Sequence record: PQ417132.1
Origin: Escherichia phage vB_VIPECOTH07
Length of the DNA stretch: 44,205 nucleotides
Reading direction: 5' to 3' (one strand)
Shown: positions 7,323-22,423 of the stretch, piece after piece
Position numbering within the stretch: position 1 is the first letter of the stretch
How the letters are laid out: the number at the start of each line of letters is the position of its first letter
Notes under the pieces: generated by a model
Databases searched by the model: none
Seen by the model: only the letters and a program-made list of their open reading frames with translations
Told to the model about the DNA's origin: nothing
Program-made: the position numbers and the translations under genes

Positions 7323-7351
7323 TTGATTTCCCATTATTCGCAATGTATACT
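7323..7351 (+). promoter_or_regulatory. sigma70-like promoter TTGATT-N17-TATACT
   Basis: -35 TTGATT 7323..7328, 17-nt spacer, -10 TATACT 7346..7351; ~30 nt upstream of ATG 7384. Confidence 0.5.
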
Positions 7352-7383
7352 TGGTTTCGTTAACTGATAATGGGGGTTTGAGA

Positions 7384-7554
7384 ATGACGCAGAATGAGGT
7401 AGCTGAGCGTATCGGGGTTACTCGTCGCACGCTGAATAACTGGTTAAAGAGTGGGAAGTTCCCGGATTGTTGTATCCGTATTATGGGCCGCCGGCAGCCG
7501 GGTACTTTCGACCCGGAGAAAGTGGAAGCGTGGATTAAGGAGAATGTAAAATGA
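7384..7554 (+). CDS. AlpA/Xis-like HTH transcriptional regulator
   Basis: ATG at 7384 (SD GGGGG); MTQNEVAERIGVTRRTLNNWLKSGKFP is a typical AlpA-type HTH. Confidence 0.55.
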   Translation: MTQNEVAERIGVTRRTLNNWLKSGKFPDCCIRIMGRRQPGTFDPEKVEAWIKENVK

Positions 7555-7784
7555 CCGAGTTCCAGTCCCGCGTATTTACGGCAGTCGTTTCATTAACCTG
7601 TAAAAAAGGGTCGTGCAGCGTTATGGACTTGCGCCGTAGTTATTTTAGGTACTATAGTTCCGCCATTATTGAAGGGTCGTTGAAGGTACTGGTTAAATCT
7701 GGTGTCGTGAAAAATGTTGGCGGGAAATATAGTGCTGTTGCCGAAGTTCGCGGAATGACCGCTACTTTAGAAGACCTGGAATAA
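7551..7784 (+). CDS. hypothetical protein with C-terminal LEDLE tail
   Basis: ATGA-coupled to upstream gene; ends ...TATLEDLE. Confidence 0.45.
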   Translation: MTEFQSRVFTAVVSLTCKKGSCSVMDLRRSYFRYYSSAIIEGSLKVLVKSGVVKNVGGKYSAVAEVRGMTATLEDLE

Positions 7785-7842
7785 AAGAAAGCCCCGACGC
7801 GGTGAACGCCGAGGCTAAATTACTTGCTGAAGGAAATATAAC

Positions 7843-10083
7843 ATGTCCGATGTAATTTTATCCTACTCGTGGTCTCGTCGCAACGCGCGGGCCGAGAAAA
7901 AGGATATAAACGTCAGAACCACACACACGGCAACGCTGGGCGACCTGAAAGATTTAATCCAGCCGCTTGATGCTGTCCGTGACGGAATTAACCCGAAGAC
8001 CGCACCCGGTTATATCACCGCCGCGTGCGACTCCACACACAGCACCGTAAAAGACCCGGAAACCGGTGACTTTAAGCAAGCGCGTAAAGGCTTCTTCTAT
8101 CGCTGTGATGCGTCTGTAAGCAAATCGTCGCTGGCGTATCTTGACTTCGATAGCGCAACACCGGAAGAGTATCGGGAAGCGGTGCGCCTGGTTAAGCGCA
8201 GCCGCCAGGCGATGTGTCTCTACACCACGGCATCACATACCGACGAGTCGCCGCGCTTTCGCGTCGTCATGCCGCTGGCCCGCCCGGTTGAAGGTGGCGG
8301 CATCATCCGTGTTCGCCATGGATTACTGGAGCACTTCTTCAAAGGCATGGGCGCGGACCGCAGCGGGTTCACTCTGTCGCAGCCGATGTACCTGCCGCCA
8401 GTTGGCTCTACTGTTATCTGGTCGCGCCGCAACGACCTGATTGACCCTGATGAGTTACTGGAAGGCGCCCCAGCCGTTGACATCAGCAGCGCATCTGATT
8501 ACCAGATACCGGAAGAACTGCGCACCGCGTTTACAGATGCGTTTGAAGCACTGGCATTCGAGTACGGCGGCATCATGACGCCGCGTGGCCTTAAGATGCC
8601 AGCTACGCCAGAACACGCAGAAAACTACAGCGACCCGACCCCGCGCCCGGACGACTTCCTGCTGTGCTTCCCGCGCGAGGGATATGAAGCGCCGAACGTA
8701 ACGATGATTCACGACACCGACATCACGGCAACCGAAGGCATGTCGCCGAAAGAGGTGTGGAAATACGCGTGTGATGCGACCGGGCTGCCGTTCAGTGAAG
8801 TCGCCGAGGCTATCGGATGGGGTGCGCGTGAATCTGTTTCATGCAGCCTCGACGACCTGGAAGACGATGATGACTCAGAAGAGGACGAGCTACCGGAACC
8901 GGTAAAGGCTGATTTCGTCGTTGAGGGGTACATGCCGTCAGATTGTATCTGGGATATTGTTGGGGAATCCGGCACGTACAAATCGTTCTATACGCTGGGG
9001 ATGATGTACCTGAGCGCCGCCGGGTACAGGTTTGCGGGGGCGGATACCCAGCGTTGCCACCATTTCTATATTGATGGTGAGGGTGGCGCAGCTACACGCA
9101 CCCGTATTGATGCACTAGCGGCTAAATATGGCGGGGAAGGTAAAGATTATGTACACGTCATCGATATGGGCGAAGTCGGCAAACTTAAAAGCCTGATTAA
9201 GTTAATGCGCGAAACTGCTGGCGACGAGCCAATTGGCATGGTTGCGTTCGACACCCTTAACCAGACCCTGGCACTGACGATTGATAAGTTCGACGAGAAC
9301 AGTTCATCAACAGCAATCGGCATGGGTAAAGTTATCGCCATTCTGAAAGAAGTACGCGATGCAACTAAAGCCGCAGTAGGCGTTGTCCACCATACGCCGA
9401 AGGGTGGAAAGAAAGCACGCGGCAGTGGGGCGCTGTATGCGGGTGTTGACGTGGAACTGACAATCGAACGTGCAACCGACCGTCAGATAAACGTATATCA
9501 CTCGAAATTCAAGCACGGGCCTCAGCAGAAGACGGTTGGCATGGTGCTGGAGTCGGTACAGTTCCGTGAAGCGCCGCCGCCTAAAGAATACCGAGCGGTT
9601 GAGTTCCTGGGTAGCACAGAGGAATACGGCACAATCGTAAACCTCGATCTGCCTGAGCCGCACAAGGCGCTTGTGCTGATGCCGTGGGGCTTCGAGCCGT
9701 TCAAAACTGACGAGGAGAAAGAGCGGGAAGAAGGGTTGACGAAAGAAGGTAAGCAAAAAGTAAAGGAAGAAGTTAAACGCGGCAGGGATGAAGTAAGGAA
9801 GGAGTCAATACTTTCGGCACTGGAAGACCTGCAACAGTCAGATGACACAGGTCGCGGTTTTACTCAGCAGCAGATAGTGGCTCGTTCCGGTGACTTCTCT
9901 GTGACTAACACCCATCTTGATAAAATGTTGAAAGATGGAGAACTAATGCTTGGTTGCGATGCTAACGGCGAAGTAGTACCGAGAACATATCGTATACCCG
10001 AAAGAATAGGTGATAGATTAAGGCCGAAGACACTATACGAACCAAATGAGATGCTGGTGGTGACAGAGGAGGATTTGGAATAG
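7843..10083 (+). CDS. primase-helicase (AEP-like primase N-domain fused to RecA/DnaB-like ATPase)
   Basis: N-terminal LAYLDFD and TTASHTDESPRFRVVMPL resemble archaeo-eukaryotic primase motifs; C-terminal Walker A GESGTYKS and VVHHTPKGGKKARGSGALYAGVDVELTIER resemble RepA/DnaB-type helicases. Internal acidic stretch LDDLEDDDDSEEDE; ends ...TEEDLE. Confidence 0.7.
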   Translation: MSDVILSYSWSRRNARAEKKDINVRTTHTATLGDLKDLIQPLDAVRDGINPKTAPGYITAACDSTHSTVKDPETGDFKQARKGFFYRCDASVSKSSLAYLDFDSATPEEYREAVRLVKRSRQAMCLYTTASHTDESPRFRVVMPLARPVEGGGIIRVRHGLLEHFFKGMGADRSGFTLSQPMYLPPVGSTVIWSRRNDLIDPDELLEGAPAVDISSASDYQIPEELRTAFTDAFEALAFEYGGIMTPRGLKMPATPEHAENYSDPTPRPDDFLLCFPREGYEAPNVTMIHDTDITATEGMSPKEVWKYACDATGLPFSEVAEAIGWGARESVSCSLDDLEDDDDSEEDELPEPVKADFVVEGYMPSDCIWDIVGESGTYKSFYTLGMMYLSAAGYRFAGADTQRCHHFYIDGEGGAATRTRIDALAAKYGGEGKDYVHVIDMGEVGKLKSLIKLMRETAGDEPIGMVAFDTLNQTLALTIDKFDENSSSTAIGMGKVIAILKEVRDATKAAVGVVHHTPKGGKKARGSGALYAGVDVELTIERATDRQINVYHSKFKHGPQQKTVGMVLESVQFREAPPPKEYRAVEFLGSTEEYGTIVNLDLPEPHKALVLMPWGFEPFKTDEEKEREEGLTKEGKQKVKEEVKRGRDEVRKESILSALEDLQQSDDTGRGFTQQQIVARSGDFSVTNTHLDKMLKDGELMLGCDANGEVVPRTYRIPERIGDRLRPKTLYEPNEMLVVTEEDLE

Positions 10084-10085
10084 GT

Positions 10086-10110
10086 AAAAAGAAAGGGGCG
10101 TTACGCCCCT
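10086..10110 (-). terminator. rho-independent terminator overlapping XRE stop codon
   Basis: Hairpin GGGGCG-tta-CGCCCC; the XRE stop TAA is the loop; followed on minus strand by TTTCTTTTT. Confidence 0.6.
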
Positions 10111-10316
10111 TCACCTAGCGCCAGCCACTTGGCGTCTACTTCCAGCACTTCCGCCAGTTTAAACAGCGTTGCCGGGCGTACGTCCTGAGTTGCCCCGAGT
10201 GCAAGCTGGTTAATCGCGCCCTGGGAAACGCCGGCCAGAACAGCCAGACGGCGCTGGGAGATACCGAGTTCTTTACGGCGTTGCTCTACACGGATGCCTA
10301 GTTCAGATGGTTGCAT
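10101..10316 (-). CDS. XRE-family HTH transcriptional regulator (Cro/CI-like, 71 aa)
   Basis: ELGISQRRLAVLAGVSQGAINQLALG is a canonical XRE HTH. ATG at 10316 with AAGGAG 8 nt upstream. Monocistronic, antisense inside the replication module. Confidence 0.75.
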   Translation of the reverse strand: MQPSELGIRVEQRRKELGISQRRLAVLAGVSQGAINQLALGATQDVRPATLFKLAEVLEVDAKWLALGEGA

Positions 10317-10326
10317 GTCAGTTACT

Positions 10327-10355
10327 CCTTAGTCAGTTGATATGTGAATAGTACC
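10327..10355 (+). promoter_or_regulatory. operator-like dyad in weak promoter context (TTGATA ... AATAG-TACC-ATATT)
   Basis: Imperfect copy of the dyad, 44 bp upstream of the perfect copy at 10381..10394, between the XRE gene and the 10441 operon. Confidence 0.4.
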
Positions 10356-10370
10356 ATATTAATTATTTTA

Positions 10371-10399
10371 GAAAAGCCCATTGACATGTGAATAGTTCG
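10371..10399 (+). promoter_or_regulatory. strong sigma70-like promoter TTGACA-N17-TATAGT with embedded dyad
   Basis: -35 TTGACA 10371..10376, 17-nt spacer containing AATAGTTCGCTATT, -10 TATAGT 10394..10399; SD GAGAGGAGAG then ATG 10441. Confidence 0.65.
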
Positions 10400-10440
10400 C
10401 TATTATAGTTAGCCCATACCAAACGAGAGGAGAGAAACAA

Positions 10441-10941
10441 ATGTTAGACCAATTCTTAAAATTACTGGAACGTTTCGTAGTTGCTCATGAACTGATTGCT
10501 GCGAATAGCGCGAAACGACCGGTGCCGCAGACCGAGCGTGTAGGTGAAATGCTTGTACACGGGTCAGTCTGCGGAGATGTACTTGAAGTCGACACAGTCA
10601 CTGGTGTCGGGAAAGAAATCCCGGTCGAAGGTCAAGACATCGTCGACACTAAACCGGCAGAAGAAGAGAAGCCAAAACGCAAGCCGCGTAAAGCTAAAGT
10701 AGAGGAGCCGACGCCAGAACCGGAAGAAGAAGTCGATTACCAGTCTCTGCGTGACCAGATTCAGGCTATCGACGATGCGATTAACGAAGGTCCGAGCGAT
10801 GCCGCGTGCGACGACTCCGATGAACTGCTGGAAGAGTTTACCGGCAAGAAGATGAAGATTGCCGCGATTAAAGACGAAGACCTGGCCGAGTACCTGGAAC
10901 GCCTGACGGCGATCAAGAACAAGTATTTCGAAGAAGAATAA
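10441..10941 (+). CDS. highly acidic protein, function unknown
   Basis: Strong promoter and RBS; Glu/Asp-rich (PEPEEEVDYQ, DDSDELLEEF, ends KYFEEE). Confidence 0.6.
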   Translation: MLDQFLKLLERFVVAHELIAANSAKRPVPQTERVGEMLVHGSVCGDVLEVDTVTGVGKEIPVEGQDIVDTKPAEEEKPKRKPRKAKVEEPTPEPEEEVDYQSLRDQIQAIDDAINEGPSDAACDDSDELLEEFTGKKMKIAAIKDEDLAEYLERLTAIKNKYFEEE

Positions 10942-10984
10942 CTATCCGGCGGCCTTCGGGCCGCTTTAACAGAGGGTCGTAATT

Positions 10985-11200
10985 ATGCGTAACGTATATA
11001 AAGTGATAAATGAGCAAATCGTTGTGGAAATAAGCGAGGCAACCACGGGTGAACAACGATTTTTCGTATTAAACGGGTGTTGGTATGGCGTTCTTGATTA
11101 CAATAATAATCTGGTGTGGGCCGAAAATTATCCCGACAGAAAACAGAAGCTTATGTCCGTACGTACTGCTGCTAAAGGTGAATTCGCACCGTACTACTGA
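10985..11200 (+). CDS. hypothetical protein
   Basis: ATG-initiated ORF in operon. Confidence 0.45.
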   Translation: MRNVYKVINEQIVVEISEATTGEQRFFVLNGCWYGVLDYNNNLVWAENYPDRKQKLMSVRTAAKGEFAPYY

Positions 11201-11211
11201 GGGGCGTAATT

Positions 11212-11547
11212 ATGAACTACGAAAATTTAACAGACATAGAAATTAACGCACGCGTCAGCCGCGCGCTATACGGCGATGTTTCGCGAGGGCATCAGATGGA
11301 ATTAGCTTCTGGTGATGTTGATTATTGCAACCGCGTTGAAGACGCATGGCCTGTTATCACCGGTAACAACATCTCGATTGTAGCTACCGATTCAGAATGG
11401 ATTGCTTTACCAGATAATGCGGTTATTGACGGTATTACCGGAGACGCCACCAGTATGATTTACGTTGGTGACGAATGCGTTATCGGCGAAAACCCTCTAC
11501 GCGCCTCTATGATTGTCTTCTTGAGAACGCATGAGGTGGATAAATGA
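11212..11547 (+). CDS. hypothetical protein (DUF2591-like pattern)
   Basis: N-terminus MNYENLTDIEINARVSRALYG recalls a common enterophage protein family of unknown function. Confidence 0.45.
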   Translation: MNYENLTDIEINARVSRALYGDVSRGHQMELASGDVDYCNRVEDAWPVITGNNISIVATDSEWIALPDNAVIDGITGDATSMIYVGDECVIGENPLRASMIVFLRTHEVDK

Positions 11548-11816
11548 TTTACCAACTATACCGCGCCGTAGACAGGCGGGATAACACAGAGGCGTTGTGG
11601 CTGTTGCGTGCGCCGTCCGGAGCGCACCAGATGGAAGAGATGGCTTACTTAGGCAAAGTACCGCGGCCTAAAGATATAGGCCGTCACGTGTCACAGATTA
11701 AGCGCACGACATTCGCCAAGCCAGACTTTTATGTCTTTGAGTCGATGTATGGGTGGGCTATGCACTGCGAACATAAGACGCGACATTTAATCGACCAGTG
11801 GGAGAGCAGGGTATGA
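11544..11816 (+). CDS. hypothetical protein
   Basis: Overlaps upstream stop; no motif recognised. Confidence 0.45.
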   Translation: MIYQLYRAVDRRDNTEALWLLRAPSGAHQMEEMAYLGKVPRPKDIGRHVSQIKRTTFAKPDFYVFESMYGWAMHCEHKTRHLIDQWESRV

Positions 11817-11962
11817 CAAGGTACGCGATAATTGTAGAAATAGACGGTAAAGACCAGGAACACAGCCGCTACGCACGTTTGGACGAAGCCCAGTACATCT
11901 TCTACACATTCGGCTTCGCACGCAGTTTCACTAATGCGCGTATTGTGGAGATTGCAGAATGA
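11813..11962 (+). CDS. hypothetical small protein (~49 aa)
   Basis: Hand-translated MTRYAIIVEIDGKDQEHSRYARLDEAQYIFYTFGFARSF...; ATG overlaps upstream stop. Confidence 0.3.
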   Translation: MTRYAIIVEIDGKDQEHSRYARLDEAQYIFYTFGFARSFTNARIVEIAE

Positions 11963-12117
11963 CGAACCGTAAAGCGCGACTTCTCTTTATTAAATGTCAC
12001 CAGCCTTTTCGAGTAAGCAACTCGACTTGGCTGATTATATTCAACCGTAGCGGTGACACGTGCGCCTACAAGCGCAAAACGCGTAAAGTTAAATGGGGTG
12101 GGAGTTTAAGAGCATGA
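11959..12117 (+). CDS. hypothetical small basic protein (~52 aa)
   Basis: ATGA overlaps at both ends (11959 and 12114); MTNRKARLLFIKCHQPFRVSNSTWLIIFNRSGDTCAYKRKTRKVKW... Confidence 0.3.
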   Translation: MTNRKARLLFIKCHQPFRVSNSTWLIIFNRSGDTCAYKRKTRKVKWGGSLRA

Positions 12118-13355
12118 AACTAAAAGAACGAGGCGGCAATAATGATGTACACGCCTTACTGTCACCGTCAGGCGCTAAAAAGTGGCTGTCATGCGCTGCG
12201 TCGCTGGCGTGTGAAAAAGATATCCCTAACACGTCGGGTAAAGCCGCTGTATCAGGAACCGCCATGCACACCATAGCTGAGGTCCATCTCAACGCCTATA
12301 TACGCGGCACTGCGTTGCCGTTGGAGCGTGAAGTCGGCGCTTACGTGCTGGACGAGGGTAAAGGCCAGATTAAGGCGCTAATTAGCCAGATGAAAGGCGC
12401 GGTACTGATTACGGCTGACATGATTGAGCAGGTGCGCAAGTACACCGACTACTGCAAAGCGATTATCGACGTAGCGACTTACGCCAAGCTGGAAATGCGG
12501 GTAAATCTTACTGAGGTATTGCATCCGGGTTACGAAGGCGTTGAGACGTTCGGAACCGCTGACCTTGTTGCCGTTCAGGAACTGGCGAACACTGACGAGC
12601 ATATGCTCATTATCGGCGACCTGAAAACAGGACGGCATCATGTCGAAGCGAAAGAAAACAAGCAGCTTATGCTCTACGCTCTCGGTGTTTACCGCCGACT
12701 CAAGAGACGTTATAACATATCAGTAGTGCGCCTGGTCATCTTCCAGCCGTACGCCGGGGGCGCGTCGGAGTGGGACATCTCGGTTGAAGGTCTGGAACTG
12801 TTCGCTAAGTTCGCACAGAAACGCGCACTGTTAGCCCTTGATGCGTATTTCCGAGGCAAGAAGAACCTGAAAGCGTCGGACTTTAAGCCGTCTGTCGACG
12901 GTTGTCAGTGGTGTCGGTTCTCTGAACAGTGCGCAGCGCGTACAAAGACGGTTAATTCTGTACTTGCCGAAGAACTGGAGGACGACTTTGCGCTGGAACT
13001 TACGCCGGAGCAACTCGTAGCTGAATATGAGAAGTTGCCGTTGTTGCGCCAGCACATCGATAAGGTCGAAAAAGCTATGGCTGCTGCGTTGCATTCCGGT
13101 AAGAAAGTGCCAGGGTACAAGCTGGTGGAAGGTCGCCCAGGTAATCGTGCGTGGAAAGACGCAGAGAAAGTAGCAGAACTCTACGGCGACAAGCTGACTA
13201 AAGAAGTGCTCCTGACGCCGACCGAAGCGGTTAAAGTAATACCAGAAGAAGAACTGAAAGACTTCATCACACGTAAGCCGGGGACGCCATGCGTCACAAC
13301 AGCGGACGACAAACGTCCTGAGTGGAATAAGGTTAGTGAAGAAGATTTAGAATAA
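12114..13355 (+). CDS. PD-(D/E)XK exonuclease, Cas4/RecB-like with four-Cys cluster
   Basis: ADLVAV...IIGDLKTGRHH nuclease motifs; N-terminal WLSCAASLAC plus C-terminal CQWCRFSEQC match the Cas4-type Fe-S Cys pattern. Start moved to ATG 12114 (track 12093). Ends ...VSEEDLE. Confidence 0.7.
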   Translation: MKLKERGGNNDVHALLSPSGAKKWLSCAASLACEKDIPNTSGKAAVSGTAMHTIAEVHLNAYIRGTALPLEREVGAYVLDEGKGQIKALISQMKGAVLITADMIEQVRKYTDYCKAIIDVATYAKLEMRVNLTEVLHPGYEGVETFGTADLVAVQELANTDEHMLIIGDLKTGRHHVEAKENKQLMLYALGVYRRLKRRYNISVVRLVIFQPYAGGASEWDISVEGLELFAKFAQKRALLALDAYFRGKKNLKASDFKPSVDGCQWCRFSEQCAARTKTVNSVLAEELEDDFALELTPEQLVAEYEKLPLLRQHIDKVEKAMAAALHSGKKVPGYKLVEGRPGNRAWKDAEKVAELYGDKLTKEVLLTPTEAVKVIPEEELKDFITRKPGTPCVTTADDKRPEWNKVSEEDLE

Positions 13356-13359
13356 AGTG

Positions 13360-13388
13360 TTGACATCTGAATAGTTAGCTATTATAGT
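13360..13388 (+). promoter_or_regulatory. strong sigma70-like promoter TTGACA-N17-TATAGT with embedded dyad
   Basis: TTGACATCTGAATAGTTAGCTATTATAGTT; same architecture as 10371..10399; a CCGGG-cagctt-CCCGG hairpin follows in the leader (13401..13416). Confidence 0.65.
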
Positions 13389-13442
13389 TCTAATCACTGG
13401 CCGGGCAGCTTCCCGGAGTAATCTTAAAAGCGAGAAATCAAG

Positions 13443-14069
13443 ATGGGCATTAAACTGAATCTGCGTAAAGTAAACACTGCATGGGTTAACGTATTCGAAC
13501 GCGAAAAAGACCGTGAAAACGACGACGGCTCAATCACTAAAGGCCAGTACAGCGCAACTATCATCCTGCCGACTGACCATGCTCAAATCGATGCGCTGTA
13601 CGACACTGTTTACGCTGTAGTTGAAGAAGCATTAGGTGCAGCTGCTGCCGAGAAGTGGATGAAGTCAAACTACGGCGAAGGCAAGCATATGGATAAATGC
13701 GCTATTAAAGACATTGCTGAGCGCGACAATCCGTTTGAAGACTTCCCGGAAGGCTTCTACTTCAAAGCGAAAGCACAGAAACAGCCGCTGATTGTAACCT
13801 CTAAAAAAGGTGAGACTCAGGTGGAGCAGGACTTCAACGTAGACGGTGAACAGATTGAAGGTGAACAGGTTTACAGCGGCTGCGTCGCTAACGTAAGCGT
13901 CGAAATCTGGTTCAGCCAGAAATATAAAGTACTCGGCGTTAACCTGCTGGCGATTAAATACGTCGGAGAAGGTAAAGCGTTTGGAGGCTCTAAAGTTGCT
14001 GCAAGCGTCGACGACCTGGAAGACGACGAAGAAGATGAAGCACCGCGCCGCGAACGTCGCCGCCGTTAA
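13443..14069 (+). CDS. single-stranded DNA-binding / annealing protein (putative)
   Basis: Own strong promoter, next to the exonuclease; acidic DDLEDDEEDE segment then basic RRERRRR C-terminus. Fold not verified. Confidence 0.45.
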   Translation: MGIKLNLRKVNTAWVNVFEREKDRENDDGSITKGQYSATIILPTDHAQIDALYDTVYAVVEEALGAAAAEKWMKSNYGEGKHMDKCAIKDIAERDNPFEDFPEGFYFKAKAQKQPLIVTSKKGETQVEQDFNVDGEQIEGEQVYSGCVANVSVEIWFSQKYKVLGVNLLAIKYVGEGKAFGGSKVAASVDDLEDDEEDEAPRRERRRR

Positions 14070-14088
14070 TATCTGAATCAATTTAACT

Positions 14089-14112
14089 AAGGCCCTTCAT
14101 TGGGCCTTTTTA
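14089..14112 (+). terminator. rho-independent terminator / attenuator
   Basis: AGGCCC-ttcatt-GGGCCT followed by TTTTT, between SSB-like gene and DNA polymerase. Confidence 0.6.
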
Positions 14113-14128: not shown

Positions 14129-16309
14129 ATGAGTTACCTGTTCTTAGACTTTGAAACATTCTCCGAAGCCGATTTGAAGAAAGTCGGTTCCTACGCTTAC
14201 GCCGAACATCCAACTACCGAAGTGCTAATCTGTACATATGCTTTTAACGACCAGCCTGTACAGGTATGGGATTGCACCGACGGCAGCGATATGCCGGGCG
14301 ATTTGTATCGCGCGTTACGCCGCCTGGTTAAGCCGAACAGCCGCGTTAAGATGGTGTGGCACAACGGCTCAATGTTCGATAGGCTCGTCATGAAACACTG
14401 CTGGGGTTTTGACATTCCGGTAAGCAACACCATTGATACGATGATTTGGGCGTTTCGTCACGCGCTGCCGGGTTCGCTCGATGCGCTGTGCGAAGTGCTG
14501 GGCGTATCTGCTGACAACGCAAAAGACAAACGCGGTAAGGCGCTGATTCAGCGTTTCTCTAAACCGACACCGAAGAACTACAAAATTCGCCGCTATACCG
14601 CCGAAACGCACCCTGACGAGTGGGCGCTGTTCATCAAGTACGCAGTTAGCGACATCACCGCGATGCGTGAAGTGTTCCATAAGCTACCGCGGTGGGGTAA
14701 CTCGGAGTTTGAGGACCGTGTACTGGAACTGGACCAGTTAATCAACGACCGCGGGTTTAAGGTCGACGTTGCGTTGGCGGAAGCCGCGATTGAAGCGGTA
14801 GAGAAACACAAAGCGCAGTTGCAGGAAGAAGCCCAACGTAAATACGGCGGCTCGCTTACTGGTAAAGACTTCCTTCCTATTCTGCGTGAACTTGCGCCAG
14901 CGCACCGAATCCACAACGCGCAGAAGTCGACGCTAAATGACCTGTTGGCGGATGATGATTTACCGGACGACGCCCGCACGATTATCGAAATGCGCCTCGG
15001 GGCGGCATCCACTGCGTCAACGAAATATAACCCGCTGCTGTTAGGCCGCTCGTCTGACGACCGCCGTCGCGGTTGCATCCAGTATGGTGGAGCTAAACGT
15101 ACGTTACGATTTGCGGGTAAAGGCTTCCAGCCGCAGAACCTGGCTCGCGGGTACTATCACGACGACGAACTGGATAAAGGCATTTCTGCGTTACTTAAAG
15201 GCCGTGCGCACCGCCGTTTCGATGTAGCCAAACTAACGGCATCGACGGTGCGCAGCTGCATTATACCTGAAGCCGGGCATAAGTTTGTCGTCGCCGATTA
15301 CTCTAACGTTGAAGGCCGCGGTTTGGCGTGGCTGGCTGGCGAAGAAACCGCGCTTGATACGTTCCGTGCCGGGCTGGATATTTACTGCGTAACCGCAGGC
15401 AAGATGTTTGGCATGGAGTCGGATTACATTAAGAAAGAACGTAAAGACTTACGCCAGATTGGTAAGGCCTGCGAACTGGGACTTGGCTACGCGGGTGGTG
15501 TCGGCGCATTCGTACAGTTCGCCAAAAACCTCGGCCTTGACCTTGTTGATATGGCAAAAACAATGGACGGGACTTTCCCCGACCACATCTGGGCTGCTAC
15601 CGCACGTGGATATGAGTGGGCGCGTATTCAGGAAGCCAAGCGACCGCCACGTCCTGGTGAAAAAGATGACCGACCATCTTATATTCTTGATAAGAAAGTG
15701 TGGCGTACCTGCGACGCTATCAAGCGTATGTGGCGTGAGTCACACCCGGAAACAGTAGCTTTCTGGCGTGATATTGAAGATGCGGCTATGGCGGCTATCC
15801 GCAATCCGGGCAAAGAGTTCACCGCGGGGCCGCGGGGAGTTAAGTTTTCGCGCAACGTAGAGACAGACAACAACAGCAACAAAGTCGCCGGTTGGTGGCT
15901 GCGCATGACGTTGCCGTCGGGCCGCGTTATGTCTTACCCAGGCGTAGGGTTGAGCGTATCGAAAGAGACAGACGAAGATGGGAAGGTGTCTACTAACGTG
16001 CGCATAAAGTACCAGGGAGAAAATCAGTTAACCCGTCAGTGGGGCTTCCAGTACACATATTCCGGTAAACTCGTGGAAAACTGCACACAGGCGCTGTGCC
16101 GTGATTTGCTGGCTAATGCGCTGCTGAACGTCGAAGCAAACGGCTACCCGATTGTGCTTCATGTTCACGATGAGATTATCTGCGAGACACCAGATTTACC
16201 GGAATACAATGTTGCAGAGCTTGAGCGGTTGATGTGCGAATTACCTGAATGGGCGGAGGGGTTCCCTCTTGTAGCAGAAGGTGCGGAGATGAAGCGTTAT
16301 GCCAAGTAA
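14129..16309 (+). CDS. DNA polymerase, family A, with 3'-5' exonuclease domain
   Basis: Exo I DFETFS; motif A VVADYSNVEGRGLAWLAGE; motif B RQIGKACELGLGYAGG; motif C VLHVHDEII. Confidence 0.9.
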   Translation: MSYLFLDFETFSEADLKKVGSYAYAEHPTTEVLICTYAFNDQPVQVWDCTDGSDMPGDLYRALRRLVKPNSRVKMVWHNGSMFDRLVMKHCWGFDIPVSNTIDTMIWAFRHALPGSLDALCEVLGVSADNAKDKRGKALIQRFSKPTPKNYKIRRYTAETHPDEWALFIKYAVSDITAMREVFHKLPRWGNSEFEDRVLELDQLINDRGFKVDVALAEAAIEAVEKHKAQLQEEAQRKYGGSLTGKDFLPILRELAPAHRIHNAQKSTLNDLLADDDLPDDARTIIEMRLGAASTASTKYNPLLLGRSSDDRRRGCIQYGGAKRTLRFAGKGFQPQNLARGYYHDDELDKGISALLKGRAHRRFDVAKLTASTVRSCIIPEAGHKFVVADYSNVEGRGLAWLAGEETALDTFRAGLDIYCVTAGKMFGMESDYIKKERKDLRQIGKACELGLGYAGGVGAFVQFAKNLGLDLVDMAKTMDGTFPDHIWAATARGYEWARIQEAKRPPRPGEKDDRPSYILDKKVWRTCDAIKRMWRESHPETVAFWRDIEDAAMAAIRNPGKEFTAGPRGVKFSRNVETDNNSNKVAGWWLRMTLPSGRVMSYPGVGLSVSKETDEDGKVSTNVRIKYQGENQLTRQWGFQYTYSGKLVENCTQALCRDLLANALLNVEANGYPIVLHVHDEIICETPDLPEYNVAELERLMCELPEWAEGFPLVAEGAEMKRYAK

Positions 16310-16512: not shown

Positions 16513-16665
16513 ATGACAATGTTTGTATTTTGGACGATAGTAACCATGATCGCACTGTTACTCGGTGCGGGAATAGCCGCGATGTTCCGCTATGGCCTGT
16601 TCTTTAAGTTTGTCGGTGTTGCCGTTCTAGGAGGGGCTTTCCTTACTTGGGTTCTGCGCTCATGA
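16513..16665 (+). CDS. small membrane peptide (~50 aa)
   Basis: Hand-translated MTMFVFWTIVTMIALLLGAGIAAMFRYGLFFKFVGVAVLGGAFLTWVLRS; ATGA-coupled to VRR-NUC gene. Confidence 0.3.
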   Translation: MTMFVFWTIVTMIALLLGAGIAAMFRYGLFFKFVGVAVLGGAFLTWVLRS

Positions 16666-16964
16666 CTAAAGAGGGCCGCGTACAGAAATATGCAAAAGAG
16701 AGGTTCGAGGCCATCGGTGGCCTCGTTCGTAAGCTGTCTTATGAGGGTAGAAACGGGGCGCCTGACCTGCTGGTAGTCCTACCGGGAGGGGTGATATGGT
16801 TCGTCGAGGTGAAGAAAGACGAAAACACGGAACCGGAGGCCCATCAGTTGCGGGAACACAAACGGCTTCGTAAACGTGACGCAAATGTTTTTGTAGTAGG
16901 AACAAAAGAAGAGGTTGACGACCTAATAGCGAGCTATTATAGTAGTCATACACCAACAATATAA
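16662..16964 (+). CDS. VRR-NUC domain nuclease
   Basis: GAPDLLVVLPGGVIWFVEVKKD matches the VRR-NUC D...E-x-K pattern. Start moved to ATG 16662 (track 16647). Confidence 0.6.
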   Translation: MTKEGRVQKYAKERFEAIGGLVRKLSYEGRNGAPDLLVVLPGGVIWFVEVKKDENTEPEAHQLREHKRLRKRDANVFVVGTKEEVDDLIASYYSSHTPTI

Positions 16965-16975
16965 GGAATTGAGAA

Positions 16976-17179
16976 ATGAGAAAGTTAGGCCCGCACATCG
17001 TTAAGTACATGTACGAAAAATATGATGGCGACATTGTAACCGCATTGGAGGGATTAGTTGGCGCTGAATCTGTTTTAGATGATCTTGAATTTGACCGACT
17101 GTGCATATGTATAGACGAGGCAAAACGTAACGCACTGAATTATGTACTAGAAAACTACTGCACAGAGGAAGACGAATAA
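16976..17179 (+). CDS. hypothetical protein (acidic C-terminus ...TEEDE)
   Basis: ATG ORF with upstream GGAA; no motif. Confidence 0.45.
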   Translation: MRKLGPHIVKYMYEKYDGDIVTALEGLVGAESVLDDLEFDRLCICIDEAKRNALNYVLENYCTEEDE

Positions 17180-17373
17180 TGAATAAATACGAATATGACC
17201 GCAAACCAGCACGCGACATCGTACCCGGTGACATGATTTTCAACGTTAAGACACGCCAGCCTGTTGCCGTTGATACGGTGTTCGTCGAGTCGAACGGTAA
17301 ACTGGTTATCGAAGACGTAACTGGTAACGTTACAGCGTTTGGGCGTAAAGAGCTTGTTCTGGTGGCAAAATGA
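17179..17373 (+). CDS. hypothetical protein
   Basis: ATG overlaps upstream stop (TAATG). Confidence 0.45.
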   Translation: MNKYEYDRKPARDIVPGDMIFNVKTRQPVAVDTVFVESNGKLVIEDVTGNVTAFGRKELVLVAK

Positions 17374-18794
17374 GTAAGTTTCAAAGGCGCGAATATCAGA
17401 AGCTCATGACTTCGTTCATGCTGCAACACCCGCGCTGTAATATCTGGTGTGGCATGGGAGGGGGTAAAACCTCCTCTACTATGTGGGTGTTAAACCGCTT
17501 GTTCCGCAACGGGCAGCTTACAGAAGAGGACCGCGTGTTAATCCTCGCCCCGTTGCGTGTTGCGTCGGGTACGTGGCCTGCAGAACAAGAGAAATGGAAC
17601 TTCCCTTGTCTGCGTGTCGTCGATGCGACCGGTTCGGAGAAGCGCCGCATCGCGGCGCTGGAGTCAGACGCTAACGTGGTGTGCACTAACTACGAAGTTA
17701 TCGAGTGGCTAATTGACTACTACGGCAAAGACGACTGGCCTTTTACGGTTATCGTTGCCGATGAAAGCACGAAGCTTAAATCGTTCCGCAGCCGTTCGGG
17801 TGGTAGCAAGCGGGCAAAGGCGCTCAGCAAGGTTGCGTTCGGAAAGGTTAAGCGTTTCATCAACCTTACTGGTACACCGTCGCCAAACGGCCTCAAGGAC
17901 TTGTGGGGGCAGAACTGGTTTATCGACGCTGGCGAGCGACTCGGTTCATCGTACACAGCATTCACCGACCGCTGGTTTAACTCGGTACAGAAAGGTAAAT
18001 CGGCTATGGCCCGCGAGTATCATGCACGACCGGGTGCGGATAATGAGATTCATCAGAAGATGAAAGACATCAGCCTGACCATAGACCCTGCCGAGTGGTT
18101 TGGTTGTGAAGCGCCTGTTATCGTACCGGTTGAAATAGACCTACCGAAGAAGGCGCGTCAGGCGTACATAGATATGGAGGAGAAGTTATTCGCAGAACTG
18201 GAGAGCGGGGAAGTTGAAGCGGCTAACGCTGCGGCGAAGACCTCAAAGTGCTTGCAGATTGCATCTGGTGCCGTGTATGTGTCAGGGCCGGATGGCGAAG
18301 CGACCAAAGACTGGGAGAAAGTGCACGACACGAAACTGGATGCGCTCGAGTCGATTGTTGAGGAGTTGCAGGGTGCGCCGTTGCTGGTAGCCTATCAGTT
18401 TAAACACGAACTGGAGCGTATCCTTAAGCGATTCCCTCAGGCGCAGGCTTTTTCTAAGGGTGCGAAGGGTAATAAGCAGATGGAAGCGTGGAACCGTGGC
18501 GAAATCGAAATCTTATGCGTGCATCCCGCGTCAGCCGGTCATGGTTTGAATTTACAGGACGGCGGGCATCATCTGGCATTCATCTCGCAAGGCTGGAACC
18601 TTGAGCACTATTTGCAGGTTGTCGAGCGCATAGGCCCCGTACGCCAGAAACAGGCGGGTCACGAGCGCCCGGTGTTCCTTTATCACATCGTTGCTAAAGA
18701 CACTCTGGACGGGGTTGTCGCCGCGCGTACCGACGAGAAGAAATCGGTACAGGAAGAGTTGCTTAATTACATGAAGAGACGAGGTAAGAAATGA
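17370..18794 (+). CDS. superfamily 2 DNA helicase (SNF2/DEAD-like)
   Basis: Walker A CGMGGGKTSS, motif II VIVADESTKLKS, C-terminal helicase-domain motifs HPASAGHGLNLQDGGHHLAF. Confidence 0.75.
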   Translation: MSKFQRREYQKLMTSFMLQHPRCNIWCGMGGGKTSSTMWVLNRLFRNGQLTEEDRVLILAPLRVASGTWPAEQEKWNFPCLRVVDATGSEKRRIAALESDANVVCTNYEVIEWLIDYYGKDDWPFTVIVADESTKLKSFRSRSGGSKRAKALSKVAFGKVKRFINLTGTPSPNGLKDLWGQNWFIDAGERLGSSYTAFTDRWFNSVQKGKSAMAREYHARPGADNEIHQKMKDISLTIDPAEWFGCEAPVIVPVEIDLPKKARQAYIDMEEKLFAELESGEVEAANAAAKTSKCLQIASGAVYVSGPDGEATKDWEKVHDTKLDALESIVEELQGAPLLVAYQFKHELERILKRFPQAQAFSKGAKGNKQMEAWNRGEIEILCVHPASAGHGLNLQDGGHHLAFISQGWNLEHYLQVVERIGPVRQKQAGHERPVFLYHIVAKDTLDGVVAARTDEKKSVQEELLNYMKRRGKK

Positions 18795-19306
18795 TGGATT
18801 TCGAAGAGTTTCTACTTAAAGCTCATCTGCTGGCGCGTGGGTTTGACGCTGACCGTCTCCAGGTAGTCTTAGCCCCTGGAGTAGCTACGTTTTACCTGTG
18901 GGGGTTTGACGGTAGGCTTCGCGGATACCAGCATTACAAACCACATGCCGAAAAGAACTGTAAAAACCCTAAAGACGCGCGGTACTTTACCAGAACAACA
19001 AGGCCGTGTTTATGGGGGCTTGAGTATTTGCCGGAAAGCGGGGTGGTATTTGTTACCGAAAGCATATTCAAAGCCGTAGCCTTGATGAATTGCGGGTTCA
19101 ATGCTGTAAGCGCACTGGGGTCAAATATATCAACAGACCTACGGCAGCAAATGTCACTTTTGCCGTATGACTGGGTGTGCGCTGGCGACAATGATAAAGC
19201 TGGATTAAAGTTCAGCAAAACATTCACCAGAGGATTTGTATCTAACGACCTTGATGAACTTTGTGAAGAAGAAATAACGTATCTTGCGAGGAAATTTACC
19301 AGATGA
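18791..19306 (+). CDS. Toprim-domain protein (putative DnaG-type primase core)
   Basis: Conserved Glu in VFVTESIFKAVALMNCGF and DxD in VCAGDNDKAG match Toprim catalytic motifs. Confidence 0.5.
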   Translation: MMDFEEFLLKAHLLARGFDADRLQVVLAPGVATFYLWGFDGRLRGYQHYKPHAEKNCKNPKDARYFTRTTRPCLWGLEYLPESGVVFVTESIFKAVALMNCGFNAVSALGSNISTDLRQQMSLLPYDWVCAGDNDKAGLKFSKTFTRGFVSNDLDELCEEEITYLARKFTR

Positions 19307-19440
19307 ACATCATAGCTCCGATTCCAGCATTGCAAAAACGTATCAAGGAACTCGAAGAAGAGGTTCTGCGACTACGGCAGCAAAGAGACGCCGCTAATGC
19401 GCAACTGGCGTTTGTACTGGAGAAGTTATCAGAAGAGTAG
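19303..19440 (+). CDS. hypothetical small protein (~45 aa, coiled-coil-like)
   Basis: Hand-translated MNIIAPIPALQKRIKELEEEVLRLRQQRDAANAQLAFVLEKLSEE; last gene before the bidirectional terminator. Confidence 0.3.
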   Translation: MNIIAPIPALQKRIKELEEEVLRLRQQRDAANAQLAFVLEKLSEE

Positions 19441-19442
19441 AG

Positions 19443-19474
19443 AAAAGGCCCCGTTTGGGGCCTTAGTTTTATTT
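19443..19474. terminator. bidirectional rho-independent terminator between convergent modules
   Basis: AAGGCCCC-gttt-GGGGCCTT flanked by T-runs on both strands; separates the replication operon (+) from the tailspike (-). Confidence 0.7.
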
Positions 19475-22423
19475 CTCTTCTAGCGCTGCCAGCCTCTGCT
19501 CTAACTCACGCATCTTCTTACGCTGATACGCAATCTCTAGGAAGAACATCTGGTCTGCCCTAATCCCCCATCTGCCGCCGGGGGCTGTTATTTGTACGGT
19601 CTGACCATCTTCATCAACGCCATACGTAGCTTCAATTGAGTCGTAGCACAAGAAAGCATATTTACAGTCTGTAGAACCCTCTTCCATAAGCCCATGTTTG
19701 ACCAAGATGTCTCGCACATCTTGAGCTATCACGCCGAAGTGTATCCTTGCAGTGTCACCCTTGATTGCTAGGCTTTCAAGCCACTTAAAAGATATTACAT
19801 GTATATCTTCCCATGCGGTAAGGAGTTGTTGCTCAATTTCCTCTTTGTTCGTCTTAAGTGTACCGTCAGACGTGTTTATCGTACCGGTGGTCGCGTACAC
19901 CGTAGTCCACCTATTACCTGCCGAACCTAAAGACACTTGCGAGTCTAAGTAAGGAAGGAAATTGTCGTATGAGTAGAAGCCTCCTGACGCATACATAATA
20001 GCCCTGTTAGGCGTTGCATGGTTCGACCCGTACAGTTGCAGCAATGCACCGTCGGAACTGGATGCGCCATCACCGCCACTAACAATCAGTCGTTGAGCAG
20101 ATGGGGTTTTAGTCGGGACTGTTTTTGAAATCAGCCCGTAATCACCATCAAACCGTGCCCGCACGGCAGACTGTTGTGTGCCATCGTATTCCAACCCCGT
20201 TACACGCAGGGAGTACACGCTTATTTCATTGTCAAACGTCAAAGGTGCTTCTACATGACGGACACCATCTACACCCATTGCGACAGGTAGTGTACGGTTA
20301 GGAGTTGCTCCGTATTTGAAATCACGGGACACATACGGGTGGTCTTCAATCTTTATCCGGTAGCTATATAAGTCAGCCGGATGCCCATCATGCTTGTACC
20401 ATAACTTCGCACTGTTATCCCCTATGCTCCAGGGAGAGAAGAAGTCTTCCCCTCCAAAGATATAGTACAACCAGCCATCTTTAACACAGACAGAGCCGAC
20501 GCCGACGGCAGAGTTAACGATATGGCCCTGGTATATTTGGTCGGTAATATTAAACCACTGAACATCATCTAAAGATGAAGGCCATGACGACACATTAACT
20601 TTGCACATAAAGGTCCGTGGATACGAACCTTCATAGCGGCTGTCCGGCTCACCCCCTTCCCACTCGCCAAAGGCACGTTCTGTACCAAAGATGTAGAGAT
20701 AGTCACCTACTTTAGCGAACGGAAGATTGGAGTGATGTACATTGTTCGGAAATCGCAAGTAGCTCCAGTTTTGCCCAGAATCGGTGCTCATCGCCAGTGT
20801 AGCGCCAGGGGAAGTAGGTAATGTGCCGCGTGTGGTAAGGTAGAGCACACCTCCATAACTTTTCACGCACGGCTCAGAAGCGTTATCAGCGTATGCCTGA
20901 GCGACAGTGCGACGAACGAATACGCCTGGATTGTCATACACGTTACTAAAATACAAGACGCCAAGACGACGAGGGGACACATCGCCGTTGTGGTAGCCGA
21001 CAGCGATAGTGTAGTTAGTATCATCTATAACCGCAAAACTATGTGTCTCCGTGACACACAAATCAGCGTTAGTGGAGTATGCCACCCCCGGCAATTCGGT
21101 AATTTCCCACGGGCTGTCCCAGAATCGCGTTGCGAAGTTCCAGGTAACACCCGCATTGTTTATGGTGGAACTCGCAGGGCTTGAGAGCGTAACAGTGAAC
21201 GTATTTCGGTTAATTATAGACGCAACCGTCATATTACCCGATACGCCAGTTGCCGATGTATTAGAGAAGTTAACCGCATCTCCTGCTTTTAGGCCATGAT
21301 TTTCTATAACAATGGTAGCAGTAGTGGAGCCAGAACTAATAGTTATTCCGCCGGTTGGGTGTCTAAAATACGGCATTGGGCGTGACCAAAGTTCTGCCTT
21401 CTTCATCCGCATATTAGATAAGTAGCGGGTTTCTATAACCGCATATAATCGGTTGCCGCACGTACCCATGCTCATGCAGTGGTAATTAACTCTGTCCGCA
21501 GAAACACTAGCATTATAGTCAGCATGGATTGGAGTCAACCACTCAGGCATTGACCAAGTCTGCCCGTCGTCGCCAGAGCGAACCCAAGCTACATGTAAGT
21601 TTTGAACGCCATGTCGTTCGCCCGCCATAAACGGGGCGTAAATAACATGGTCGTAGACGAAAGTTTTATCCTGCGTCCATGCGTTGTAGAACGGGGTATC
21701 CGTCACCTTAGTTAGTGAGCTGTTAAAGAAGCCATCAGCTACATAAGTAAGCGGTTGCCCGGCTACGCGCTCGTAAACGAATGCAGCATTCTTAAATTTA
21801 CTAATGTCAGGTAATTGGGAAACTTTATAAGTCAAACCCCTGCCGTCTATAATCCAATTGTTGGGAGAAGCTGCTAATACATTAAAAATAGATTGAGTAT
21901 CATCAGTTACACCGTCGCCCACGGCGCCCCATGCGCGTGGGTCGTATTCGTCCTTCCATCGCGCCATATGTAAATCTGGGTACAGAATTGCACCGTTTAC
22001 ATCAGATATTTGCTGCCGCAGTATGACCGACCCGACGGGCTGCCACGCCCCATCTGCCACGCCACCGGTGGACTGCGGAGAAGACGACGCTGGGATAATT
22101 TTTGGTAGAGCACCCAACCAATAGTACCAATCCCCGTCACCGCCAGAGGACGACGGCCACAAAACTGCGGTGTTTCGGTCGTTAGCGGATAGTGTACCGC
22201 CTGACGTGAAATCAAAATCTGCCAGTTTAAAACCTGCGTCACGCAACACAGCCGGCAGTGTCTTCTGTGTCTGCCCCGTAACTGCGTTGGTCGCGTAATC
22301 AATATCTGCGCCTGCAGCTACACCGCCAGATTTACCGGTAATAACCTCAGCTTCGAAAATCTGGTGTTTCTTGGCGGTCTGTAAGTCCGCCAGGCTTAAA
22401 ACGTCACCGCATCCGCTTGACAT
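19469..22423 (-). CDS. tailspike with sialidase-like Asp-boxes and C-terminal intramolecular chaperone-like domain
   Basis: Two Asp-box motifs (SGDDGQTWS, STDSGQNWS); C-terminus ...INTSDGTLKTNKEEIEQQLL...ARIHFGVIAQDV resembles the self-cleaving chaperone domain of endosialidases and L-shaped fibres; last gene of the tail operon. Confidence 0.8.
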   Translation of the reverse strand: MSSGCGDVLSLADLQTAKKHQIFEAEVITGKSGGVAAGADIDYATNAVTGQTQKTLPAVLRDAGFKLADFDFTSGGTLSANDRNTAVLWPSSSGGDGDWYYWLGALPKIIPASSSPQSTGGVADGAWQPVGSVILRQQISDVNGAILYPDLHMARWKDEYDPRAWGAVGDGVTDDTQSIFNVLAASPNNWIIDGRGLTYKVSQLPDISKFKNAAFVYERVAGQPLTYVADGFFNSSLTKVTDTPFYNAWTQDKTFVYDHVIYAPFMAGERHGVQNLHVAWVRSGDDGQTWSMPEWLTPIHADYNASVSADRVNYHCMSMGTCGNRLYAVIETRYLSNMRMKKAELWSRPMPYFRHPTGGITISSGSTTATIVIENHGLKAGDAVNFSNTSATGVSGNMTVASIINRNTFTVTLSSPASSTINNAGVTWNFATRFWDSPWEITELPGVAYSTNADLCVTETHSFAVIDDTNYTIAVGYHNGDVSPRRLGVLYFSNVYDNPGVFVRRTVAQAYADNASEPCVKSYGGVLYLTTRGTLPTSPGATLAMSTDSGQNWSYLRFPNNVHHSNLPFAKVGDYLYIFGTERAFGEWEGGEPDSRYEGSYPRTFMCKVNVSSWPSSLDDVQWFNITDQIYQGHIVNSAVGVGSVCVKDGWLYYIFGGEDFFSPWSIGDNSAKLWYKHDGHPADLYSYRIKIEDHPYVSRDFKYGATPNRTLPVAMGVDGVRHVEAPLTFDNEISVYSLRVTGLEYDGTQQSAVRARFDGDYGLISKTVPTKTPSAQRLIVSGGDGASSSDGALLQLYGSNHATPNRAIMYASGGFYSYDNFLPYLDSQVSLGSAGNRWTTVYATTGTINTSDGTLKTNKEEIEQQLLTAWEDIHVISFKWLESLAIKGDTARIHFGVIAQDVRDILVKHGLMEEGSTDCKYAFLCYDSIEATYGVDEDGQTVQITAPGGRWGIRADQMFFLEIAYQRKKMRELEQRLAALEEK

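Follow-up and report, generated by a model that had tools for sequence, protein, structure and literature searches.

A short D-L peptide shared by replication-module proteins of Escherichia phage vB_VIPECOTH07 is a strictly conserved, putative docking motif

The early/replication module of Escherichia phage vB_VIPECOTH07 (sequence record PQ417132.1; the whole stretch of 44,205 nucleotides analyzed here is referred to as the window) encodes, on the + strand, a set of unrelated proteins that carry the same short peptide, [ST]-x-[DE]-D-L. The peptide forms the C-terminus of a 77-residue winged helix-turn-helix protein (p77, 7551..7784), of a 746-residue primase-helicase (7843..10083) and of a Cas4-like nuclease of the DUF2800 family (12114..13355), and it recurs inside the primase-helicase and in the T7 gp2.5/Enc34-type single-stranded DNA (ssDNA)-binding and annealing protein (SSB, 13443..14069). 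We are highly confident that it represents a real, selected and shared docking motif. The fuller statement, in which its receptor would be phage-encoded, namely the SSB and/or the family A DNA polymerase (14129..16309), is in our judgment somewhat better than an even bet.

Results

The initial annotation of the window had reported three near-identical C-termini, and all three were found where it had placed them: TATLEDLE in p77, VTEEDLE in the primase-helicase and VSEEDLE in the nuclease, each of the intervals that it cited covering five codons and the stop. Extended to six residues, the motif reads T-L-E-D-L-E in p77 (7764..7781, stop codon 7782..7784, from the open reading frame (ORF) and its codons), T-E-E-D-L-E in the primase-helicase (10063..10080) and S-E-E-D-L-E in the nuclease (13335..13352). 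As had also been noted, different codons are used for the tails (GAA GAC CTG GAA, GAG GAT TTG GAA and GAA GAT TTA GAA). A C-terminal [ED][ED][LIVMF][ED] was present in only these three of the 286 ORFs of at least 40 amino acids in the window, and the number of three-protein sets with identical last four residues expected from 78 genes with the C-terminal amino-acid composition of the window was approximately 3e-5.

The pattern [ST]-x-[DE]-D-L-[DE] occurred exactly five times in the approximately 78 proteins of the window, all within four of them. Besides the three C-termini, one copy lies within the primase-helicase, in the acidic linker that joins its two domains, primase and helicase (SLDDLEDDDD, residues 335-344, 8845..8874) and another directly after the oligonucleotide-binding (OB) fold of the SSB (S-V-D-D-L-E-D-D, residues 188-195, 14004..14027). 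Thus, the internal LDDLEDDDDSEEDE of the helicase and the DDLEDDEEDE stretch that precedes the RRERRRR tail of the SSB, both mentioned in the initial annotation alongside the three tails, proved to hold conserved copies of the same motif. The TEEDE end of a 67-residue ORF (16976..17179), proposed there as a further member, was dropped since it lacks D-L and has no orthologue in any of the other 85 related loci.

Searches for close homologues mostly returned sequences of 83-99% identity (at least 94% for the nuclease and 73-97% for p77), which are too similar for a test of conservation. Conservation was instead assessed by tblastn sampling of a phage collection, two locus scans and an exhaustive search of representatives. 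The comparison set comprised 86 related genomes or loci (here and below, compared genomes and loci, distant ones included, bear numbers with the prefix L) with a nuclease identity of 45-100%, covering Kagunavirus, Jerseyvirus, two unclassified Guernseyvirinae and Dhillonvirus. In this set, D-L followed by 0-3 terminal residues (DL.{0,3}$) was retained in 81 of 81 primase-helicases, 81 of 84 nucleases (82 of 84 when the last seven residues were counted) and 25 of 25 p77 orthologues, while only 13 of approximately 2,980 other ORFs of the same genomes (0.4%) ended in this way. The motif is therefore kept, rather than lost, in related phages.

The tail consensus was [VA]-[TS]-[ED]-[ED]-D-L-[E/K/N/S]. 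At the invariant Asp and Leu positions, both Asp codons and all six Leu codons were used with no amino-acid replacement, which shows that selection acts on the peptide and not on a nucleotide motif, as first proposed. The residues after the Leu varied (DLE, DLG, DLKD and DLNDE at the C-terminus), and the free carboxylate is consequently not the recognized feature. Hence the D-L core of the EEDLE tail held up in the orthologue alignment, whereas the literal pentapeptide did not: the conserved unit is [ST]-x-[DE]-D-L with 0-3 residues to the end.

The SSB copy likewise kept its place behind the OB-fold in all lineages, where it reads AS[VT][DN]DLEDDE, ATD[DNS]DLDDDD, TDDDLGDDDD or SDEDLGDDDE, followed by a variable zwitterionic extension. 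The linker copy appeared in relatives as TLEDLEDD, TDADLDNE and QDEDLMDE, the last two in primase-helicases only 28-34% identical; both internal copies, in the SSB and in the linker, were still conserved at 28-36% identity.

An exhaustive search retrieved 11,829 DUF2800 relatives. Among the best 150 cluster representatives, essentially all full-length proteins of at least 43% identity ended in the D-L form, and more distant representatives mostly carried acidic-hydrophobic ends after a conserved DKRPA box (DDFEDL, DEFEDV, DFEVL). In distant phages with the nuclease-SSB-polymerase module, the tail type was lineage-specific and common to proteins within a genome. Serratia phage Scapp uses FE[EN]LE (EEFEELE in the primase, SDFENLE in the nuclease), and Staphylococcus phage JS02 has AEDDFDKL in the nuclease and AEDDFDEL in the SSB. 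Tails are likewise paired in phages of Caulobacter (RLK, SEAFANL and NEFAGL), Paenibacillus (SLEQEFAN and SLEDEFAD), Bacteroides (BT12, SSDFDIES and EDDFDDES) and Streptococcus (Javan57, EDDFLD in the primase-helicase and DDDFLN in the SSB). The Chi-like phage SeWh-1 ends its primase in FDDEDEV, its nuclease in AWDDEDDDEV, its SSB in DAWDEDEDWEDEV, its SNF2 helicase in VWDDEE and its small terminase in DEVDDDEV (the last at L088, 10581..11150), and the Chi-like nuclease tail copies the DAWD of the SSB as GAWD. Aeromonas phage phiWae15 has DDDDEL on primase, nuclease, SSB and small terminase (the last at L090, 10901..11479), and in Xanthomonas phage FoX4 (L174, 1282..12981) D[DE]EL terminates the primase, nuclease, SSB, DNA methyltransferase, SNF2 helicase and small terminase. 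That these six FoX4 proteins end alike, a methyltransferase and the small terminase among them, suggests a link of enzymes for DNA modification and packaging to the same hub in certain lineages.

The nuclease tail of each genome was then compared with the SSB tail of its own genome and with those of other genomes in a permutation test, for which 80 metagenomic loci found with a nine-sequence alignment were added. Nuclease and SSB tails co-varied (z = 4.2, p ~ 1.5e-4 over 18 independent nuclease clusters; z = 7.4 over 45 representatives). In an unbiased scan of all other ORFs against the nuclease tail of their own genome, 19 within-genome matches with a score of at least 20 were obtained compared to three between genomes, and primases or primase-helicases dominated among them. 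Tails that differ between lineages and match within a genome are what a common, co-evolving docking site predicts.

The shared tail is thus real and far beyond chance. Acidic C-termini are common among replication proteins, so that chance, compositional bias or a recent DNA duplication might be invoked; this is ruled out for practical purposes by the 0.4% background, set against nearly 100% in three families, by the expectation of 3e-5 and by the permutation test, and the differing codons and the non-homologous carriers add to the case against duplication. We regard the chance that this explanation is right as negligible.

A second alternative is that there is no common partner, each tail being an intramolecular DNA mimic that regulates the DNA-binding site of its own protein, and that the likeness is mere convergence on an acidic peptide with one hydrophobic residue. 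Every carrier is a DNA-binding protein, the tail of T7 gp2.5 competes with ssDNA for its own binding surface, and deletion of the Enc34 tail unmasks double-stranded DNA binding. However, this offers no account of residue-level matching among unrelated proteins of the same genome in one lineage after another, including the bipartite SADAFDTLEEGTDLV and SADDFEDLAVGADEDSLV, nor of a non-acidic case, NPF, which is common to the SSB-like protein and the primase of Ralstonia phage PQ43W (L176). We therefore consider it very improbable.

In PQ43W (14681..15433 and 17393..19876 of the locus), a Gln/Pro/Ala-rich tail precedes the terminal GNPFAQPATAGNPFAR of the protein at the SSB position, a putative SSB, and NTVNPFTEATS closes the primase, while the nuclease has no NPF; this may be an independent replacement of the acidic tail type.

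The initial annotation had also considered a shared host target, which the comparison disfavored. Such a target could be a chaperone, a part of the host replisome or a protease controlling when proteins are turned over. In its favor, host hubs and degrons typically rely on short peptides at the C-terminus, and the F-type tail (DDFxDL) is spread over phages of several bacterial phyla. Against this, Salmonella Jerseyviruses (D-L) and Salmonella Chi-like phages (W..DEV) share a host and not a tail, and the internal copies in the SSB and the linker, together with the 0-3 trailing residues, misfit a C-terminal degron. Because same-host phages differ in tail and the tail tracks the phage's own SSB in each lineage, the receptor appears more likely to be phage-encoded than host-encoded, and we attach only a very small probability to a host target.

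With regard to the carriers, p77 (phrog_5169) was modeled with AlphaFold2 at a predicted local distance difference test score (pLDDT) of 84, exceeding 90 for the winged helix-turn-helix domain (residues 1-63) and falling below 50 for residues 65-77. Foldseek returned generic winged-helix matches only. The family is confined to Kaguna- and Jerseyviruses, and its tail is invariant in all of the 25 orthologues given above. The possibility that p77 is a paralogue of the C-terminal region of the helicase, and owes its tail to descent, was discarded as no homology was found (E = 1.5).

An unrelated 62-residue ORF in a Guernseyvirinae-like lineage (L057, 12411..12599, + strand; approximately 56% nuclease identity, without a p77 homologue) ends in AVTATDEDLE, the tail of the nuclease and primase-helicase of that genome, and may be a functional analogue of p77.

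The nuclease (Pfam DUF2800, 8e-69, and PDDEXK_1) is a PD-(D/E)XK enzyme, called Cas4-like because it has four invariant Cys residues. It probably starts at the ATG at 12114 (413 residues) instead of the longest-ORF start at 12093 (420 residues), as 413 residues is also the length of almost every one of the 120 closest homologues, the few others having 412-415. Its AlphaFold2 model had a mean pLDDT of 88, with a nine-residue extension past the invariant W404 in which confidence decreased to 66. In the primase-helicase, AAA_25 (RepA-like) was the only Pfam domain detected, and the best PHROG was phrog_3228, 'replicative helicase-primase'.

The SSB (Pfam PF10991, Enc34_ssDNA-bd, 9e-16) was placed in its class by a phmmer match to PDB 4JG2 (1e-4), whose tail DDFTTIEDD aligns with the motif of the window SSB, and by the match of its Chi-like orthologue to Enc34 ORF6 (5ODJ, 1e-117). 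After the motif, the window SSB continues with an acidic run and the basic RRERRRR end. The zwitterionic extension (14028..14066, + strand, and the SSBs of L003, L005, L057-L085 and L086) consists of alternating acidic and basic blocks, e.g., DDEDDKPRKSKKSKRR, and ends in RRRR; there is one block in the window and three or four in Dhillonvirus and Scapp, and SSBs outside the enterobacterial clade are devoid of it.

The scaffolds of p77, the nuclease and the helicase are unrelated, and the shared peptide therefore arose independently on each. It has the features of a short linear motif, being short, located in flexible regions and on unrelated folds, with a constant D-L core and drifting flanks. 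Flexibility is indicated by the low pLDDT of the p77 tail and by the SSB tail, which has no ordered structure in the crystal; for the helicase linker, disorder is judged from composition only.

The SSB is both a carrier of the motif and a candidate receptor. In the Enc34 SSB crystal, the tail segment occupies a groove of the neighboring SSB and buries 842 Å2, and similar contacts are present in 4JG2, 4KLK and T7 gp2.5. According to the deposited 5ODJ sequence and its eleven invisible residues, the inserted Enc34 segment (TSDAYD190) is the post-OB motif, which is DAWD in Chi-like SSBs and the positional equivalent of SVDDLE in the window. The authors of that structure modeled a filament of tail-mediated oligomers with ssDNA bound simultaneously; thus, the groove is not just where DNA binds, and SSB already on DNA could still receive a client peptide. 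For the same reason, we no longer take the groove in which the tail docks to be the face that binds ssDNA.

By analogy with T7, the family A polymerase (Pfam DNA_pol_A and exonuclease domains) is the other candidate receptor. In the strict T7 arrangement it would be the sole receptor, the tails docking on its basic patches and the SSB-SSB contact in crystals being irrelevant. The acidic tails of T7 gp4 bind two basic patches on gp5, and their loss cuts processivity from 17 to about 5 kb; the gp2.5 tail binds the polymerase as well as the helicase. Further, the polymerase, alone among the core proteins of the module, never bears the tail, its C-termini being KRYAK or YRYRK in 76 loci, and the nuclease-SSB-polymerase trio is conserved everywhere. 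On the other side, the window polymerase has no demonstrated basic insertion like the thioredoxin-binding domain, we know of no precedent for a direct nuclease-polymerase contact, and a small terminase and a methyltransferase bear the tail in some lineages. In addition, the motif segment is bound to SSB in four crystal structures, and exonuclease-annealase pairs are the rule (PMC6393309). On balance, an arrangement with the polymerase alone seems unlikely, though clearly less so than a host target.

Several observations weigh against the SSB groove, or a phage-encoded receptor in general, as the docking site. The contact in the SSB groove is one of crystal packing, its biological relevance having been left open by the Enc34 authors themselves, and deletion of the Enc34 tail left ssDNA affinity unchanged. 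In the clade studied here, the SSB motif is internal and followed by the long zwitterionic extension, while the copies in the clients are terminal. The nuclease tail is short and modeled with moderate confidence, so part of it may pack against the nuclease domain itself. No shared tail is visible on the primase or helicase of some Gram-positive lineages. Finally, no polymerase-free lineage was found among the phages compared, so phyletic patterns cannot separate the SSB from the polymerase as receptor: at the polymerase position, L125 and L139 encode a divergent protein of approximately 590 residues with weak exonuclease similarity, and the PQ43W polymerase is encoded elsewhere.

The region 7351..14100 matched Escherichia phage vB_EcoS_XY1 at 97%, together with about 450 Kagunavirus/Jerseyvirus records, and the window is on this basis a Kagunavirus, i.e., a siphovirus of the Guernseyvirinae. 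Within the module, a helix-turn-helix protein (7351..7554, +) precedes p77. A divergent repressor-like gene separates the primase-helicase from p166, an acidic 166-residue protein (10441..10941, +; phrog_3127, without a Pfam match), and small ORFs lie between p166 and the nuclease, together with a 111-residue ORF (11212..11547, +; Pfam Phage_P22_NinX, 2e-7). The nuclease, the SSB (of the DUF2815 class) and the polymerase genes are adjacent and co-oriented, and this trio is a recognized phage replication/recombination module, duf2800-gp2.5-polA (PMC8093625). A VRR-NUC-like nuclease follows the polymerase, and then an SNF2 helicase (17370..18794, +) and a 171-residue Toprim/DnaG-like primase fragment (18791..19306, +; Pfam Toprim_2, phrog_849 'DNA primase'). 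The latter, found in just 11 of the 86 related loci, is a second, accessory primase-like gene beside the primase-helicase.

p166 has a conserved aromatic-acidic C-terminus of its own (KYFEEE, KYYEEE, KYYDIEE or TYFELED), and its family was detectable in Scapp (1.8e-26) and in a Paenibacillus phage (1.3e-18). Small proteins placed like p166 in Chi-like, Aeromonas and FoX4 phages end in the tail type of their lineage (EEDDV, EEEEDL and GEEM, respectively), and no homology between them and p166 was detected. p166 may be a fourth core member of the module.

Basic ends were also observed on the SNF2 helicase (YMKRRGKK, a conserved tail), the polymerase (KRYAK) and the SSB (RRERRRR). The polymerase gene of some relatives contains or adjoins mobile elements that are absent from the window: Jerseyvirus BPS11Q3 (L002, 21507..24605) encodes a 1,032-residue polymerase with an intein, and Kagunavirus VIPECOMC04 (L001, 13866..14339 and 16527..17042) has HNH endonuclease genes on both sides of the polymerase.

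Discussion

The results are best read as a new and broader variant of the tail principle known from T7 gp4 and gp2.5. We infer that [ST]-x-[DE]-D-L binds a protein partner and acts as a short linear docking motif on flexible ends and linkers of proteins that create or handle ssDNA; the partner named below and the functional consequence are put forward on the same footing. The clients would be the primase-helicase, which carries it twice, the Cas4-like recombination nuclease and the small winged-helix p77, each bearing a copy of the peptide found immediately behind the OB-fold in the T7-type SSB of the phage itself. Every copy would be expected to fit one phage-encoded receptor surface that co-evolves with them, the likeliest being the concave β-sheet groove of the SSB, with the family A polymerase as a second or alternative receptor, as in T7.

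In such a mechanism, the SSB motif would mediate head-to-tail contacts between SSB molecules, and enzymes that generate or act on ssDNA would use the same peptide to occupy the adjacent SSB groove and possibly a patch on the polymerase. The helicase, nuclease and p77 would thereby be tethered to SSB-coated DNA, or an SSB filament would be seeded on the exposed strand, and the SNF2 helicase and terminase could be further clients in other lineages. The proposed recruitment or seeding would be comparable to the loading of Red-beta by lambda Exo (PMC6393309).

The resemblance to T7 is considerable. The two systems agree in their T7-type OB-fold SSB, their family A polymerase and their bifunctional primase-helicase, and in each of them helicase and SSB share an acidic tail with a single hydrophobic anchor (here VTEEDLE and SVDDLEDD). 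The tail-bearing segment of the SSB touches a neighboring SSB in crystals, and the T7 gp4 tails tether the polymerase. There are, however, clear differences. The anchor in T7 is a terminal aromatic residue, Phe, whereas here it is the Leu of a fixed [ST]-x-[DE]-D-L context, with 0-3 residues between it and the C-terminus. Here, the SSB copy is internal and has a zwitterionic extension, and the helicase linker contains a second copy. The carriers include a winged-helix protein as well as a Cas4-like nuclease and extend, in other lineages, to an SNF2 helicase, the small terminase and a methyltransferase. The primase-helicase is of the RepA/AAA_25 type and not a homologue of gp4, which joins a DnaB-like helicase to a Toprim primase. 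Tail-polymerase binding is established in T7, while here it is a candidate by analogy. The earlier proposal of acidic docking tails on a common replisome hub as in T7 is supported: it agrees with the sharing of tails within genomes, their change between lineages and the T7-type SSB, and it needs refining in that a free carboxylate is not required and that the SSB is itself among the carriers and a candidate receptor.

A short acidic-hydrophobic peptide on a disordered SSB tail, used as a general replication and recombination handle, is also the hallmark of the bacterial SSB C-terminus (DDDIPF). In that system, only the SSB bears the peptide and more than a dozen partners bear the pocket; in contrast, the phage peptide is on four proteins and the partners hold copies of it, so that the logic would be inverted or competitive. 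Neither the motif nor the SSB fold (T7-type here, the E. coli-type homotetramer there) is the same.

The adjacent genes for a nuclease and an ssDNA-annealing protein are also reminiscent of exonuclease-annealase pairs such as lambda Exo-Red-beta, RecE-RecT and herpesvirus UL12-ICP8. A specific contact between the two proteins presumably brings the annealase onto the resected strand (PMC6393309), and ICP8 has a flexible C-terminal element for neighbor-to-neighbor contacts (PMC12409425). The handle proposed here, a six-residue nuclease peptide that would mimic the SSB tail, is unlike that of lambda, where Exo is bound by a folded domain at the C-terminus of Red-beta. A further difference from these pairs is that the handle is shared with replication proteins.

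More tentatively, and with a probability well below that of the docking motif itself, a lineage-specific 'tail code' might run the whole duf2800-gp2.5-polA module, the SSB motif being copied onto each enzyme that works on SSB-coated DNA. Every such enzyme would take the position of the next SSB in the filament. The carriers of this code would be the primase-helicase, the Cas4-like nuclease and a winged-helix protein that binds the origin or DNA, joined in certain lineages by the SNF2 helicase, the small terminase and a methyltransferase. If so, divergence of the code would make the replisome of each phage private, insulated from co-infecting phages and from the host.

Conclusions

In the full-text literature covered, which excludes most subscription-journal papers, the module has been described and no prior description of the shared tail was found. 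A six-residue peptide is a simple pull-down handle for identification of the hub, and the tails supply a testable docking map for phages common in phage therapy collections, namely Kaguna-, Jersey-, Dhillon- and Chi-like viruses, Staphylococcus Triaviruses and Bacteroides phages. Candidates for recombineering include the gp2.5-type annealases with their DUF2800 nucleases, and compatibility within a nuclease-annealase pair, or within a chimeric replisome, may hinge on matched tails. The module is present in thousands of phages of Proteobacteria, Firmicutes and Bacteroidota. If the proposed docking is correct, the T7 principle of one acidic tail for helicase and SSB would hold for a far larger, unrelated set of replication modules in phages, and also for recombination and possibly packaging enzymes.

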